A stretch of 51,177 bases of DNA from a virus (IMGVR_UViG_2579778634_000021), one strand, 5' to 3'; numbered from the stretch's first letter, positions 1,286 to 43,066 are shown. The notes: generated from the letters alone by a model not told the origin. Made by a program: numbers and translations.

Positions 1286-1495
1286 AACCGCAGCACGTTC
1301 TTGCTTAAGACGTGCTGCGGCATAATCCCAATGATTACTCCCTGACAGGGTTCGTAGGCCACTCAATATCAGGTGCAGTTGATGTATCAACACGGTTCAG
1401 CAACACCCGATACTTTTTCCAGGCTTCCAGCAACGAGATTTCTTCCTCTGTTGCAATTTCCAGATCTGCAGCATCCTGAAGCGGCGCAATATGCT
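1286..1495. repeat. direct repeat copy B (tfa 3' end plus terminator hairpin)
   Basis: Partner of 235..450. Contains the 11-bp-stem hairpin ccgcagcacgt/acgtgctgcgg immediately after the tfa stop. Confidence 0.7.
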
Positions 1496-1919
1496 CGCTG
1501 GCTACCTGCATCAGGCTGTTTTTTGTTTCTTCCGCCTCCCGGATCCGGAACAGTTTTTCTGCTTCCGTATCCTTCACCCAGGCTGTGCCGTTCCACTTCT
1601 GAAACTCCCCTTCCGGCGATAACCAGGTAACATTTTCCGGTAACGGACCGAGTTCAGAAATAAATAACTCGTCCCCTGACGCTACGTCATAAACCGTTTT
1701 ACCCCGATGGTCTTCAACGAGATGCCACGATGCCTCATCACTGTTGAAAACAGCCACAAAGCCAGCAGGAATATCTGGTGGTGCAATATCGGTACTGTTT
1801 GCTGGCAGACCTGTATGAGGCGGAATATATGCGTCACCTTCACCAATAAATTCATTAGTTCCGGCCAGCAGATTATAAATTTTTATGGTCCGTGCTTGTT
1901 CACTCATTCTGAATGCCAT
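1335..1919 (-). CDS. tfa: tail fibre assembly protein Tfa
   Basis: 194-aa ORF directly downstream of the side tail fibre gene, with the start overlapping the stf stop. Conserved Tfa C-terminal domain. Confidence 0.85.
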
Positions 1920-28195: not shown

Positions 28196-28336
28196 GGTTT
28201 ATTACCGTTACTGTTGACAATGAGAACTGTTTTCATTTAGAAATGATTGATGTCGAAAGCATCCTTTCGTTAGATTCTCCATTGGGATTACCTCCGCCAG
28301 TCTCCATTCCTGTTGCTGGCGGTTTTTTTTCGTCTG

Positions 28337-30310
28337 TTATGCTGCTACGGCATTCACACCAACAGTAAGACTTTCAATCAGCACAGGGTAAGTTGCCGCA
28401 TTTCCGGTAATATCCGTAATTGCCAGCGCGTTGGCCTCAAAGGCTGCATTCGTCCATCTGGTCAGCGTAAACGGTTTTCCTGCTGCATTATCAAGCACCG
28501 GCGTGACGTTCAGCGAGCCACCACCCGGGAAGCGGAAAGTCAGCGTGTGCCAGTCGTGATCGAACGGACCATAACTACCAAGCCGCTGTGATGTGGTGTT
28601 TGCATGATACATCACATTGATGTTTGTTTTATCAGTCTGCAGATAGAAGGCCGCAATATAACCCTCCTCTGATTCCGCTCCCGGCCATCCACTACCGCGC
28701 CAGTAAATACCCGCAGAATATTGATTTGCAGAAGCATTGAGAGATACATCATCGGGGATTTTAAAGCGCAGCGTGATTTCACCGCCGTTATCGAACAGCT
28801 CCTTCCCCTTACCGGCATCAATTGCGTGCGATACTTTCCAGGTCTTTTTCTGTGCAAGACCATTTTCTGGTTTTTCAAGACGAAGGGCTTTTTTACCTGA
28901 ACCACTGTCACTGACCAGCGTGTTTTTGACATCTGTCAGCGTCCAGCCCTGCGAAGCCAGAGCGGCATTTTCCGCATTCACATCATAAGCCAGCACTGAC
29001 TGTATCTTTGTCGGGACAACGGCTTCAGGCTGAGTATCGCCACTCTCCTGTGCTGGTTGCGATACGCCTCCGCCTGAAGAAACCGCGGCTTTTGTCACTT
29101 TCCCGGAAACAAAATCTGCCACTCTGCCCACATGCAGAAGAATGGCTGTTGCCAGACGGTCGGAAATAATTCCGCGACGCGCCCATGAACCAAAGTGGGT
29201 TTTACGATCGGATGTTGTCCAGCTCTTCGCATCCGTTCGTCCACCGGAACCATAATACCCGATAGCCGGAATATCCGGGTCTTCTGACGGTTCATTGGTC
29301 CCGACTTTCTGACCATTGTCATCCATCATAAACGGCACAAAGAAGATATTTTTACCGGCTTTGGTTTTGTATGCGCCATAGACGGCATCGTATTGCGCTG
29401 AATACGTCTCCTTCCAGTAGTACGTCGTGTCACCACAAATCCAGGGCACCAGAGAAGGAGAAGCACCAGCGCACTGACCGGATACTCCCGCCAGGTCAGA
29501 ACGGTATTTTTCCACCATGGCATCAAACATGGCGGGCTGACTGGCGTACGCTCCCTGTTTTAAATCAAACTCGCCCTGCATCCAGACAACACAAAGCAGT
29601 ATGTTTTTGGGGTTTGCCTTCAGCGCGGCCTGAGTGCGTGTCAGCAGGTCTTTATACAACGGCTTATCAACGCCCCATCGTTCAGATTTATCCGACGCTC
29701 CTGAACTTTCACTGAACGTTCCGTCAGCACCGGCTGTAAACGCAGAGCCACCACGACAGCACGGCACTAACAAAATACCCGCATTTTCCGGCATAAAGGG
29801 CAACAGCTTTTTGGCAATATGCAATCCCTGTCCGACACACCCATACTGCTCTGCGCTGGCTTTCGGATGAGAAAAACGGCTCAAATCCTGCACATCATGC
29901 AGGCAGTGGTCCGCCGGAATGATGTCGTTATATGCACAGGCCGCACCACCCGGTGTCACCGTACTGCGACGCGCCAGCTGTTTAATACGCGGGTCCGGAC
30001 GGTCATATGTCTCCGGCAGCGGCAGGCCTTCACCATACGCCATGCCGTTTGACTGTCCGGCCAGCGCAATGACAAAGTAATATTCTGGTTCAACAACAAC
30101 AGTCCGGGTACCATCTCCCCCCGGTGAAACTACCGGAGAGGTCATATCCCCTTCAGCGACTATAGCCTGGATAAATTCAGCACCATAACCCGCGTTTGAG
30201 ATAATCGGACTACCATAGGGTTGCCAGCCTTCCTTCAGTTTTTGCGTCAGTTTTCCTGCGAGGTCTGACGGCGATGATGCCCTGACCACGTCATAGTGTT
30301 TAAATGCCAT
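28337..30310 (-). CDS. nanS: prophage sialate O-acetylesterase-like protein (NanS-p type)
   Basis: About 657 aa from MAFKHYDVV. N-terminal domain typical of prophage NanS-p, a GQSN esterase motif, and the usual position between the Q region and the lysis cassette. Confidence 0.75.
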   Translation of the reverse strand: MAFKHYDVVRASSPSDLAGKLTQKLKEGWQPYGSPIISNAGYGAEFIQAIVAEGDMTSPVVSPGGDGTRTVVVEPEYYFVIALAGQSNGMAYGEGLPLPETYDRPDPRIKQLARRSTVTPGGAACAYNDIIPADHCLHDVQDLSRFSHPKASAEQYGCVGQGLHIAKKLLPFMPENAGILLVPCCRGGSAFTAGADGTFSESSGASDKSERWGVDKPLYKDLLTRTQAALKANPKNILLCVVWMQGEFDLKQGAYASQPAMFDAMVEKYRSDLAGVSGQCAGASPSLVPWICGDTTYYWKETYSAQYDAVYGAYKTKAGKNIFFVPFMMDDNGQKVGTNEPSEDPDIPAIGYYGSGGRTDAKSWTTSDRKTHFGSWARRGIISDRLATAILLHVGRVADFVSGKVTKAAVSSGGGVSQPAQESGDTQPEAVVPTKIQSVLAYDVNAENAALASQGWTLTDVKNTLVSDSGSGKKALRLEKPENGLAQKKTWKVSHAIDAGKGKELFDNGGEITLRFKIPDDVSLNASANQYSAGIYWRGSGWPGAESEEGYIAAFYLQTDKTNINVMYHANTTSQRLGSYGPFDHDWHTLTFRFPGGGSLNVTPVLDNAAGKPFTLTRWTNAAFEANALAITDITGNAATYPVLIESLTVGVNAVAA

Positions 30311-30513
30311 TATTCCTCCCGGCAGGGATAGTGTATGCAATCAAGATAAGGTGCGGGCTGACGTCAGTCATGGACAAGGGTTCAGAAACAGGAGGATGAC
30401 TACAGCCCGCAATACGAAAAAGACCATACAGTTGCGCAGAGTGATTACTGTCGGGTATTATTCGCCAGCTGAAAATTGATCACTTCACGTTTTGTTGTTT
30501 ATTCCTTGCCACC

Positions 30514-30570
30514 CGCGCTTCCCGGCGCGGGCTTTTTTTTATCCAACAAGAAAGCCCCTCCGGAGAGGGG
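30514..30570. terminator. two back-to-back terminator hairpins
   Basis: cccgcgc..gcgcggg followed by T8 (plus strand), then gcccctccggagaggggc with a U-rich run on the minus strand. Confidence 0.5.
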
Positions 30571-30800
30571 CTGGAGAGTAGCGCTATGTACCGTTCATGC
30601 ATGGTGCAGGGTGCCTCCCGGTGAGTTCAGTATCAGCACCTGAACCCGCACCAGAAAGGATAAGGGGTGTGACCAAACACCTGTCGCTGATATGCCCCTC
30701 CGCACAGGGGGATTCACCATGCCATATTTTTTTAACAAACTTCCCGCTGGCCAGACAATAATCGCCAGCCTGAATTGTGAGTAACGTGGCATTTTACGGG
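30545..30800 (-). repeat. repeat unit 1 (about 250 bp, begins with the hairpin aaagcccctccggagaggggct)
   Basis: Shares several long blocks with 31025..31285, for example catggtgc.gggtgcctcccggt and gggggattcacc...tttttaacaaa...gccagacaat. Confidence 0.6.
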
Positions 30801-31024
30801 AAAACTGTTTTCTGCAGTAAAAAGGCCCGCCGGAGCGAGCCTGGAAGGATAGCGGTCATGTGATGCCGGTTTCCCGGTAACTCAGCATCGGTATCTGAGT
30901 CAACGTTTTCTCTACTGGGTCATTTCCGATACGTTCCGCCTTCCGGCAGACTTTCATCACGTCAGAAAATATAGCACCCTGAGTAACAGGACAGTACTCA
31001 GAATTCAGGAAACTGTGACACATC

Positions 31025-31285
31025 CTGCACAGAAAAGCCCCTCCGGAGAGGGGCTGAAGTATAGCCTAATTTCTGTCTGTCGCATGGTGCCAGGTGCCTC
31101 CCGGTAAATTCAGCCTGGCTACTGAATTTGCATGTTCGCTGGATCATACACTTTGCCAGATGCCCCGCCGCTGAGGGGGATTCACCACGCGATGCAATTT
31201 TTAACAAATTCTCCGGCAGCCAGACAATCATCAAGCTGTGGAATTGTGAGGTATTTAAAAATTTCGCAGCCTCTTGCCACCCGCT
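31025..31285 (-). repeat. repeat unit 2
   Basis: Same block order as unit 1. A degenerate third copy lies between them at about 30821..30960. Confidence 0.6.
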
Positions 31286-31369
31286 TTTCACAAAAATCGT
31301 ATGTAGAAGGCCGCAGCGTAACTATCACTGATGAATTCAGGACACCCAGAGGCTACGGCTCAGTTTGGA

Positions 31370-31441
31370 TTGTGGCGGCCGGAATCGAACCAGCTCCCAT
31401 CGGTGCGCTGCCGATTACAATACGCGCGGCGATCCGCTACA
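31370..31441 (-). other. tRNA-like element (degenerate; possible tRNA remnant)
   Basis: Canonical T arm (GCUGG-UUCGAUU-CCGGC), a 5-bp anticodon stem and a 6/7-bp acceptor stem. There is no recognisable D arm, the anticodon loop is atypical (cagcgca), and no CCA is encoded. Confidence 0.3.
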
Positions 31442-31760
31442 TGACTAGTATTTTCACAGTCGCCTGTCTGCTAGCTCGCCATTGAGCTTCACCACAACGA
31501 TAAGAGCACTGCGCACACCTTTCACCAATTCCACGAGGTCTGCGGGTTCAATGCTCTTACCTGTTGTGCAAACAAAAAGCCCCGACATTTCTGCCGAGGC
31601 CTTTACCTAATCTAGCCAGTATGCCGATCCTAAATATTATCGACGACCGAGGTAAATCAGGATTTCTCTTTCGCTTCTCAGTGCGCTTTTGCTCCGAGCA
31701 TACACAAAACATACTACTTTCATTTCTCGAAAGCAACGCATTTACAAAAAATATTTTGCA

Positions 31761-32387
31761 TCATCTAGCAATCACTAGAAGTTCTTTCTCCAATTCTCGC
31801 TTCATTGCATAAAACATTTCTGAATCAAGGACCCTCTCGCACCACACGACCCGCCTCCGGCAATACTGAATATCAACTCCTGTTATCTGAGAAATCATCC
31901 TGGCGATATCTTGCGTGCTGTCGCGATTGCAATATCGCCTAATAGCTACATCACGGACAGGGCTTTCACGATGAAAGGTCTCAACCATCACACGTTCAAC
32001 GAAAGCAGCATCATCGGATTCTTTGGCGAGAGCAATGATATTACCTGCCGATGACTGAGGGATGACCAGTTCTCGGGCTTTCTGATGGAGTTCATCTCCA
32101 CGTAGTCCGTCTTCTTCATACAGACGCATGACAACAGACTCAATCTGCTTAGCTTTGTCATCGCTCCACTGACTGCGAATCATCAGTCGCCCAATAACGT
32201 TAATTGCACCACAAGGAGAATCATCACCAGCGTTAACATTTCCCCATACCTGTAGCATGTAGTGAACCCATGCTTTCTGACGAGAGTTAATGATTTTCTT
32301 CGGATGCCTCCATATGCGGCGGAAATGAGCATCATTAATAAAGTTAACCATGCCGAATACTGGGGTTAGCCGCATCACAGCCCCCAT
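31761..32387 (-). CDS. putative late-gene regulator in the Q position (Q-like by position only)
   Basis: 208-aa ORF immediately upstream of the terminator-rich region and the late genes. I could not match it to lambda Q. Confidence 0.4.
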   Translation of the reverse strand: MGAVMRLTPVFGMVNFINDAHFRRIWRHPKKIINSRQKAWVHYMLQVWGNVNAGDDSPCGAINVIGRLMIRSQWSDDKAKQIESVVMRLYEEDGLRGDELHQKARELVIPQSSAGNIIALAKESDDAAFVERVMVETFHRESPVRDVAIRRYCNRDSTQDIARMISQITGVDIQYCRRRVVWCERVLDSEMFYAMKRELEKELLVIAR

Positions 32388-34132: not shown

Positions 34133-34834
34133 TCAGAATTCAAATTGTCTTGCCCGCAGGCTTTTCAGCATTGGCATGGCCCACTGGATAACGGAACTTG
34201 ACATGTCGAGACGTGTTACCTCCCTTAGTAGCGCGTCTCTGTTCTTCGTCACCATGTAGATAGTCTCAAACGCAATGTCATACAGCTTGTTCGTGTATGA
34301 GGAGTTCAGCTCTTTCATTATGGGGTACAGCTGCTTGCTAAGGTCCTGGGCTTTTTCCATCCAGAGTTGCATGTAGCAAAGGAGGATGATTTCCTCGGCT
34401 GTGAATTGTGGCTGAATCTGCGGCTGCTGTTCGGTTGGTGCTGTTTTTCCCTGGCTGAAATAGCAGTCTTCCAGTTTTTCGAACACTTCCCACGCCTGAT
34501 CGGTTTCGAGCATTTTTGCGTGACGGGCTGCGCCGCGTTCTGTCCAGAGGATGAGGGAGCGAACATTGCGGGCGATTTTCACAGAGTAACTTTCTGTTAC
34601 CTCGCGGCTAACAGACTCGCTTAAAGATAGTCTGTGCTTGAACTCACGTAGTTCATTCCCTTCCAACTTAAAGAAATGTTTTCCCTGTACAAATCGCGCA
34701 GAGTTACGGGAAAAATTCATTTTTATATTGACTGTTTCAGTGCCATACAATTGCGCCAATAATTCTGTAGTAATTACGGGGATCTGGTTGTAGGCAATTG
34801 GGGAAAGAGTTTCAACGGAAATTTGAGTCGCCAT
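34133..34834 (-). CDS. ORF6N-domain protein (antirepressor-like, putative DNA-binding)
   Basis: 233 aa. The N-terminal block VITTELLAQLYGTETVNIKMNFSRNSARFVQGKHFFKLEG fits the ORF6N pattern. Inserted between the two ninB-ninE copies. Confidence 0.6.
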   Translation of the reverse strand: MATQISVETLSPIAYNQIPVITTELLAQLYGTETVNIKMNFSRNSARFVQGKHFFKLEGNELREFKHRLSLSESVSREVTESYSVKIARNVRSLILWTERGAARHAKMLETDQAWEVFEKLEDCYFSQGKTAPTEQQPQIQPQFTAEEIILLCYMQLWMEKAQDLSKQLYPIMKELNSSYTNKLYDIAFETIYMVTKNRDALLREVTRLDMSSSVIQWAMPMLKSLRARQFEF

Positions 34835-35112
34835 GACAACGCCCTCTGGTTGATGAATTTAACTATCACCACCGTCAGGTGCAAATCTTTGGGTGGTGAG
34901 ACGTACAGGGTTTGCACTACCGGATCAACCAACCGGCGAGCCTTTCGGCTCCCCCATACGCCCCACCATAATTCAGATGTGCGTGTGCTTACGACAACAA
35001 AAAACACGCTCGCGGCGTGTGTCTGTCGCGGTTGAATATCCGGGGTGCAAATCCCGACGCCAGATTTTGCTGGCGCGTGAGGAATATAGCCCCGAATAAA
35101 TCATCACGTCAA

Positions 35113-42861: not shown

Positions 42862-42925
42862 ATGCATACCAATAACGCTTCACTAGAGGCGTTTTCGTTA
42901 TGTGTAAATAAATAAGGAGCACACC

Positions 42926-43066
42926 ATGCAATATGCCATTGCAGGGTGGCCTGTTGCTGGCTGCCCTTCCGAATCTTTACTTGAACGAATCACCCGTAAA
43001 TTACGTGACGGATGGAAACGCCTTATCGACATACTTAATCAGCCAGGAGTTCCCAAAAATGGATAA
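42926..43066 (+). CDS. cIII: cIII (FtsH inhibitor)
   Basis: 46-aa [49 protein letters not shown], which matches lambda cIII. Not in the supplied ORF track because it is under 60 aa. Confidence 0.85.
   Translation: MQYAIAGWPVAGCPSESLLERITRKLRDGWKRLIDILNQPGVPKNG

Follow-up and report, generated by a model that had tools for sequence, protein, structure and literature searches.

A probable head-to-tail array of three small-RNA genes of the STnc100/EcOnc27/PasD family in the late-leader region of a lambdoid prophage

Introduction

The closest described relatives of the locus reported here are the prophage small RNAs (sRNAs) STnc100 and PasD. STnc100 (RF02076) is the RNA named EcOnc27 in O157 Sakai and sRNA103 in EDL933. 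EcOnc27/sRNA103 binds and crosslinks to Hfq and is visible on Northern blots (PMC4104026, PMC7873438), and its overexpression raises the fimZ and espA transcripts (PMC7873438, PMC12711010). STnc100_4 was confirmed by Northern blotting, and the 11 copies of EDL933, dispersed and single per prophage, are expressed in uninduced cells at RPKM values of about 100-1900 (PMC5331693). In Stx2 phages, the STnc100-type slot lies just after stx2B (PMC4104026, PMC12711010). The literature reports no validated direct target or established function for STnc100/EcOnc27 (PMC7873438, PMC12370729).

PasD1 and PasD2 of EPEC E2348/69, homologues of EcOnc13, are abundant, Hfq-stabilised RNAs of 172-173 nt with RIL-seq targets (PMC8550237), and PasD and STnc100 share ancestry (bioRxiv 10.64898/2026.05.13.724894, a 2026 preprint). 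Northern blots have been published for PasD1/2. The 172-nt PasD2 was detected experimentally, with its 5' end, estimated by RNA-seq as GCAUGGUGAAUCC, at NC_011601 741157 (table S6, PMC8550237). In the papers that were searched, multiple copies of these RNAs are described as dispersed, and PasA and PasD as explicitly not tandem. At least eight Sakai prophages are reported to carry a convergent sRNA dyad (PMC4104026, PMC7873438). In the AsxR/AgvB anti-sRNA dyads of EHEC lambdoid prophages, AsxR converges on EcOnc27.

Lambda 6S RNA and StxS are also small, terminated RNAs of the late leader of lambdoid phages, starting at pR' and ending at tR'. Paralogous sRNA genes also lie side by side in OmrA/OmrB, PrrF1/PrrF2 and Qrr1-5, where every gene has a promoter and a terminator to itself and combines conserved with variable segments. 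These belong to core genomes and their regulators and targets are known (general background and the discussion of the bioRxiv preprint), whereas the array analysed here is phage-borne.

Results

Genomic setting

The window is the whole stretch of viral DNA that was analysed (IMGVR_UViG_2579778634_000021, 51,177 nucleotides). The genes around the array, NinB, RusA, NinH, Q-like, nanS-like, P21-type holin and lysozyme, all lie on the minus strand, so late transcription runs right to left. The features of the region are the following.

31761..32387, minus strand: Q-like late antiterminator gene (phrog_753 'anti-termination protein Q-like', E 3.5e-68), following NinH, RusA and NinB
31736..31731 and 31713..31708, minus strand: candidate late promoter pR', read from the sequence (TTGCTT, 17 nt, TATGTT)
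31602..31579, minus strand: hairpin of the candidate terminator tR', from the fold, with a U-run to 31571
31370..31441, minus strand: degenerate tRNA-like remnant, tRNA-Arg(gcg) by ARAGORN at a relaxed threshold only, with an intact-looking T-arm GGTTCGATTCC
31027..31227, minus strand: STnc100 copy A (RF02076 match, terminator, promoter geometry, fold), predicted RNA of ~160 nt
30816..31026, minus strand: divergent middle copy B (RF02076 match below the gathering score, helices kept), predicted RNA of ~145 nt
30542..30758, minus strand: STnc100 copy C (RF02076 match, terminator, promoter, fold), predicted RNA of ~175 nt
30432..30541, plus strand: short convergent sRNA candidate, dyad partner of copy C (terminator and homology)
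28337..30310, minus strand: nanS-like sialate O-acetylesterase gene (DUF1737 + SASA + DUF6645), the first late gene past the array

The array is located between Q/pR' and the esterase and lysis genes on the late-gene strand, and the sequence-only reading had rightly placed the repeats in this late-leader or 'moron' slot. The product of the Q-like gene has no Pfam or NCBIfam match. The nanS-like gene is preceded by a GGAGG ribosome-binding site and starts with the ATG at 30310. The leader RNA from the candidate pR' to the candidate tR' would be ~130 nt long; it folds at -44.5 kcal/mol (z -3.6) with a terminal hairpin of 13 bp, and the annotated Tr' of phage HK75 is positionally equivalent to the candidate tR'. 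From these features we infer that 31736-31571 is a pR'-tR' unit apart from and upstream of the array. This candidate is the window's equivalent of lambda 6S RNA and StxS, which resemble the array RNAs in size, termination and location.

At default settings ARAGORN found no tRNA in the window. The slot at 31370-31441 is 92.7% identical to the post-tR' region of HK75, and related prophages carry an intact ileZ-argN-argO cluster or a tRNA-Met there.

Several further Rfam matches were found outside the array. Adjoining matches to C4 antisense RNA (74.4 bits) and isrK (76.3 bits) at 34889-35076 on the minus strand lie directly upstream of an ORF6N/P22_AR_C antirepressor gene (34834..34133), and this region resembles a C4-Ant immunity module of the P1/P7 type and also the Gifsy isrK locus. 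An Esr41-like match at 28254-28330 on the plus strand scores 19 bits, far below the gathering score, and has a strong terminator, GCCAGU...GCUGGCGG followed by U8; this element faces the nanS-like gene from the opposite strand, converging at its stop codon, and could be another plus-strand sRNA. Matches to IS009 (1378-1576, minus strand, 223 bits) and to the lambda CIII thermoregulator element (42913-42971, plus strand, 88.5 bits) are consistent with a lambda-like prophage.

Three diverged repeat units matching STnc100

A repeat search of the window found the hairpin block three times, at 30546-30582, 30816-30852 and 31029-31065, at intervals of 270 and 213 nt, and the remaining blocks shared by the outer copies A and C at spacings of 468-483 nt. 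Together with alignment and the covariance model, this confirmed three related units of roughly 210-270 bp each, essentially where the sequence-only reading had seen them. The middle copy exists as that reading had claimed, but it is full-length (~30816-31026) and not a degenerate fragment confined to 30821-30960. Identities over aligned positions are 74% for A/C, 73% for A/B and 72% for B/C. Tandem Repeats Finder reported no array in the region, as copies A, B and C are too diverged at these identities.

A covariance-model scan, proposed as a check when the repeats were first noted, gave three RF02076 matches on the minus strand, one of them below the gathering score, so that the suggested resemblance of the units to small-RNA genes took the specific form of a match to STnc100. 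In the Rfam scan of the window, copy A matches at 31220..31027 with 138.7 bits and copy C at 30751..30542 with 129.9 bits, both over model positions 1-206 and at about three times the curated gathering score of 47 bits. The outer copies thus match the STnc100 model from end to end. Copy B (30991..30816) scores 30 bits (E 8.4e-4 in 4.7 kb, permissive thresholds), a full-length but weak match, and its alleles reach E 0.005 in 27.5 kb; being below the gathering score, it is by Rfam's criterion not a member. The E-values of the three copies in the 4.7-kb search (1.3e-31, 2.3e-29 and 8.4e-4) are far from chance. The covariance-model search matched no Rfam family besides STnc100 in the array region. 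The same strong-weak-strong triplet, with a middle score again of 30 bits, was found in five other loci from diverged prophages. By its sequence, copy B is a homologous but divergent subfamily.

A common fold with variable linkers

Single-sequence folds of A, B, C and PasD2 showed one layout, in which a closing helix surrounds hairpins and is followed by a linker and the terminator. The closing helix is a long-range helix of 8 bp (GCAUGGUG/CACCAUGC) that encloses three or four hairpins. An RNAalifold consensus of 12 family members, B and PasD2 among them, contains the closing helix, P2, P4, P5 and the terminator, with double compensatory changes in 12 of the 31 pairs; B and PasD2 retain all major helices. 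The copies thus share the complete set of closing helix, hairpins, linker and terminator hairpin in both the single folds and the RNAalifold consensus. Relative to A and C, the closing helix of copy B has three double compensatory changes. Between the two alleles of B, all stem substitutions keep pairing (U-A to C-G, U-G to U-A, C-G to U-G), and a 4-nt indel in the terminator leaves a stem of 7-8 bp. Judged by sequence and modelled structure, copy B is not a decayed copy.

The linker is single-stranded, CU-rich and 17-26 nt long, and differs between the copies as follows.

linker of copy A: GACAGACAGAAAUUAGGCUAUACUUC
linker of copy B: AUGACCGCUAUCCUUCC
linker of copy C: AUGAACGGUACAUAGCGCUACUCUCC

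Across subtypes, variability is highest in an internal hairpin and in the linker that immediately precedes the terminator, while the scaffold is conserved. No linker showed complementarity of at least 9 nt to either strand of the window beyond chance-level matches.

PasD resembles the array in the GCAUGGUG closing helix, the hairpins, the linker and the terminator, in the position of the promoter with its TTAAAA -10 element, and in its location between Q and a sialate esterase gene (PMC8550237). It differs from the array in that it has no P5 hairpin, a different linker or seed (CCUUGUGAG) and a U8 tail, and in that its copies are distal rather than tandem. Orthology to PasD or PasA at the sequence level was considered and rejected, as BLAST of E2348/69 PasD2 and PasA against the window produced no match longer than 29 nt (17-29 nt for PasD2); the same BLAST comparison showed nothing resembling PasA in the interval from the esterase gene to the holin gene. 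EcOnc27-type loci share with the array the prophage slot downstream of Q/pR', a convergent partner sRNA and the terminator sequence; the STnc100 copies found in published reports are single per prophage, whereas the window holds three in tandem.

The structured 5' domain could itself be the active part, binding a protein, serving as a decoy or otherwise acting without base-pairing, in which case the array would provide dosage or variant scaffolds. This domain of ~115-130 nt, which contains a multi-helix junction, is conserved more strongly than any other part of A, B, C and PasD2, and covariation maintains it; it is far larger than typical Hfq sRNAs need and atypical for a simple sRNA of seed plus terminator, and the literature on STnc100/EcOnc27 offers no validated direct target (PMC7873438, PMC12370729). 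However, the RIL-seq targets of PasD share a motif complementary to the PasD linker (PMC8550237), EcOnc27 crosslinks to Hfq (PMC4104026), no protein partner is known, and STnc100 is the only Rfam family that matches the region. A function residing in the 5' domain is unlikely, and base-pairing through the linker remains the preferred reading.

Promoters and terminators of the units

The hairpin aaagcccctccggagaggggct reads AGCCCCUCUCCGGAGGGGCUUUU on the minus strand, where it is an intrinsic terminator closing each unit. The sequence-only reading, on which this hairpin led each unit, had taken the wrong strand. A search for terminator-like sites found 11 (1.5 expected), which include the three minus-strand sites of the array and the plus-strand site of the convergent sRNA candidate. 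The minus-strand terminators are the following.

31055..31036, minus strand: terminator stem of copy A, then UUUUCUGUG
30842..30823, minus strand: terminator stem of copy B, then UUUUU
30572..30553, minus strand: terminator stem of copy C, then UUCUUGUU

The hairpins are strong, with 8 bp of which 6 are GC. The U-tails (UUUUC in A, UUUUU in B, UUUCUU in C) are shorter than the U8 of PasD2. The 3' U-tail of a rho-independent terminator is the site for the proximal face of Hfq, and the short, interrupted U-tracts of A and C are suboptimal for both termination and Hfq binding.

The long blocks that the sequence-only reading had quoted are indeed common to the units, but, read on the minus strand, they are the putative promoter and the structured RNA core. 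The plus-strand blocks gccagacaat and tttttaacaaa, when reverse-complemented, give a -35/-10 pair (TTGTCT, 17 nt, TTAAAA), and the putative promoters of the units are the following.

31227..31222 and 31204..31199, minus strand: putative promoter of copy A, -35 TTGTCT, 17-nt spacer, -10 TTAAAA, inferred +1 at G31190
30976..30968, minus strand: putative promoter of copy B, extended -10 TGcTATATT, inferred +1 at about A30962
30758..30753 and 30735..30730, minus strand: putative promoter of copy C, -35 TTGTCT, 17-nt spacer, -10 TTAAAA, inferred +1 at G30722

The extended -10 of copy B is near-consensus. In A/C-type copies across loci, TTGTCT or TTGCCT and TTTGTTAAAA are invariant across subtypes; the spacer is constant in length at 17 nt but variable in sequence in all A/C-type copies examined, and GCAUGG lies 7-8 nt beyond TTTGTTAAAA. 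PasD2 of EPEC has TTGACT, 17 nt and TTAAAA at the homologous place, and its 5' end, as estimated by RNA-seq, is the homologue of GCAUGG and corresponds to about position 30 of the RF02076 model. By analogy with this 5' end, the first ~29 positions of the Rfam model appear to be promoter rather than RNA. From the sequence and this analogy we infer that each unit consists of a promoter, an RNA of ~145-175 nt and a terminator.

A strict promoter scan flagged no minus-strand promoter at the array; its calls fell instead on these blocks in their plus-strand orientation (TTAACA, 16 nt, GACAAT). These plus-strand promoter-like sites, at 30732-30759 in copy C and 31201-31228 in copy A, would drive antisense transcription toward Q. 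The PasD2 5' end, by analogy, favours the minus-strand promoter reading over the plus-strand one. Inspection by eye for a sigma-54 promoter found no GG-N10-GC spacing, and CRP-like half-sites in the conserved TCACAATTCA block were judged unconvincing by eye.

Three minus-strand intrinsic terminators in series between tR' and nanS, within a late leader, could also act in cis as a read-through barrier that makes nanS and the lysis genes strictly Q-dependent, with the RNAs as by-products; the sequence-only reading had proposed such a tunable barrier. No specific support for it was found. A separate strong tR' candidate already lies upstream of the array, the U-tracts of copies A and C are weak for termination, and homologues of STnc100 and PasD are abundant in uninduced cells (PMC5331693, PMC8550237). 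A pure barrier would need neither a covarying structured domain of 130 nt nor a conserved promoter with a 17-nt spacer in each unit, nor would it account for single copies elsewhere. A barrier function is thus very unlikely, and the units are better read as sRNA genes.

Coding potential

The short ORFs overlapping the units, set aside as repeat-derived when the repeats were first noted, look spurious. None of them has a Pfam or NCBIfam match. Those in A (97 aa) and C (65 aa) have no convincing family match (none for C; a marginal match to phrog_35554, E 0.004, for A), are broken by indels between subtypes, and have equivalents that PGAP marks as pseudo or partial. The chief candidate for a small protein, possibly from a dual-function RNA, is a 55-aa ORF in copy B (31023..30856), which matches phrog_23557 (E 2e-45), appears in phage records as a hypothetical protein and has an open frame in the UM146 allele; on this reading, coding constraint would explain the high conservation of B. 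In addition, ribosome footprints are reported on some EDL933 STnc100 copies, where ribosomal coverage values reach 3.2 (PMC5331693). However, the ATG of the B ORF is replaced by ATA in the UM146 allele, whose frame extends back through the terminator of copy A to a GTG, the ORF has no Shine-Dalgarno sequence at a usable distance, and the inferred +1 of copy B lies downstream of the ATG. Comparison of the B alleles, counted by eye on the alignment of the conserved part, showed about 4 synonymous and 5 non-synonymous changes, and the stem changes are all pairing-neutral. The phrog_23557 match was judged an annotation artefact, and the idea that one or more units encode a small protein is scarcely credible.

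A convergent sRNA on the plus strand

The short plus-strand candidate faces copy C. It has a promoter-like element (TTGCGC, 18 nt, TATTAT, 30432..30461, plus strand), and its RNA would extend from ~30468 to 30540, with a terminator stem at 30512-30531 followed by T8. This terminator lies ~12 nt from the end of the terminator tail of copy C, so that the two genes are arranged as a convergent dyad. The element is homologous to the EPEC RIL-seq sRNA E2348C_1409.E2348C_1408.IGR (sequence in Fig. S5, PMC8550237), and homologous elements occur in Sakai Sp4 and UM146. AsxR converges on EcOnc27 as the plus-strand sRNA converges on the last STnc100 copy; the window's sRNA is unlike AsxR and AgvB in being homologous to the EPEC sRNA instead. 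Identity with AsxR or AgvB was rejected, the models for both giving no match at an E of 5 or better. In one other locus (L006), AsxR (RF02703, 63 bits) occupies the slot of the plus-strand element, with an unchanged sequence upstream of it.

Positions 31273-31289 and 30505-30521 share a direct repeat of 17 nt, CTTGCCACCCGC.... The copy at 31273-31289, upstream of copy A, is a remnant of the seed and the 5' half of the terminator of the plus-strand sRNA, and the repeat suggests that the ancestral duplicated unit was the whole dyad.

Two other loci carry the iraM anti-adapter gene on the opposite strand between the array and the esterase/DUF1737 gene (L003, 2630-2965, and L005, 1130-1465, plus strand). 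The window holds the short plus-strand sRNA candidate where some array-bearing prophages have iraM.

Distribution and divergence of the array

The 1.4-kb intergenic region is present in exact form in phage PhiR5_2 and in 17 of 5,426 complete E. coli genomes. The three-unit A-B-C array, counted where at least 80% of the 679-nt query was matched, is present in 669 of the 5426 genomes (about 12%), and unit B in 673, so that B is essentially confined to arrays. The proposed objection that the elements might be absent from related prophages does not apply, the array being widespread. Nearly all of the 124 loci with the B core motif that have sufficient flanks are A-B-C; a few break off after B or are missing one exact motif, and none of the 124 has more than three copies. 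Outside E. coli, among 185,579 species-representative genomes, the B core 26-mer was found only in an Escherichia albertii genome, in the same array. Only two main B alleles occur in 117 IMG/VR contigs.

The neighbours of the array vary, with different Q types, presence or absence of the ileZ-argN-argO tRNAs, an intact or truncated esterase gene and different downstream genes, and the array thus behaves as a module. Subtypes are shuffled between positions: copy C of phage 640R1 is the position-A subtype of UM146 and the single copy of Sakai Sp4. Comparison of two array lineages showed that B is 92% identical and A and C about 78%. The higher identity of B could reflect stronger constraint on B. 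It could also arise from exchange of A and C alleles with the pool of single-copy STnc100 genes, B having no partner outside arrays.

Discussion

The region is likely to comprise three head-to-tail paralogous sRNA genes of the STnc100/EcOnc27/PasD family in the moron slot of a lambdoid prophage, acting as self-contained Hfq-associated regulators; this reading draws on the sequence and on analogy with the described relatives. Each unit would be transcribed in the lysogen from its own sigma-70 promoter and would end at its own GC-rich intrinsic terminator, independently of its neighbours. The RNA would consist of a conserved structured 5' domain, followed by a variable CU-rich linker and the terminator hairpin. 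PasD has its predicted seed in this linker, and EcOnc27 crosslinks to Hfq; on the analogy of both, the three RNAs would most probably regulate host and prophage mRNAs in trans, by base-pairing and in association with Hfq. The copies would present different seeds, located in the linker, on one scaffold, and copy C, the last in the array, would form the convergent dyad with the short plus-strand sRNA.

The RNA family, its location and the dyad are already published. The fixed A-B-C array and the B subfamily look new, as no description of them was found in the part of the literature that was searched. The finding is real but largely ordinary, save for the fixed three-gene arrangement. Tentatively, and with more doubt than confidence, A-B-C may be regarded as a fixed, horizontally mobile module of three sRNA genes, in which B is a third subfamily beside STnc100 and PasD, invisible to Rfam, confined to arrays and under selection, and in which a common scaffold carries interchangeable linker seeds. 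If this is true, one prophage would deliver three regulatory specificities at once.

The mechanism proposed is not of a new kind. GenBank and RefSeq records leave the locus empty or give it spurious hypothetical proteins, and the array would draw attention to this gap or mislabelling in current annotation. In pathogenic E. coli, host regulation is known to be rewired by sRNAs that prophages carry in the moron slot of the late leader, AsxR and AgvB among them, and EcOnc27 variants have reportedly been linked statistically to HUS outcome in recent work. A conserved triple array with a hidden, better-conserved middle paralogue, if it is present in ~12% of complete E. coli genomes, would add to the known regulators carried by the accessory genome.
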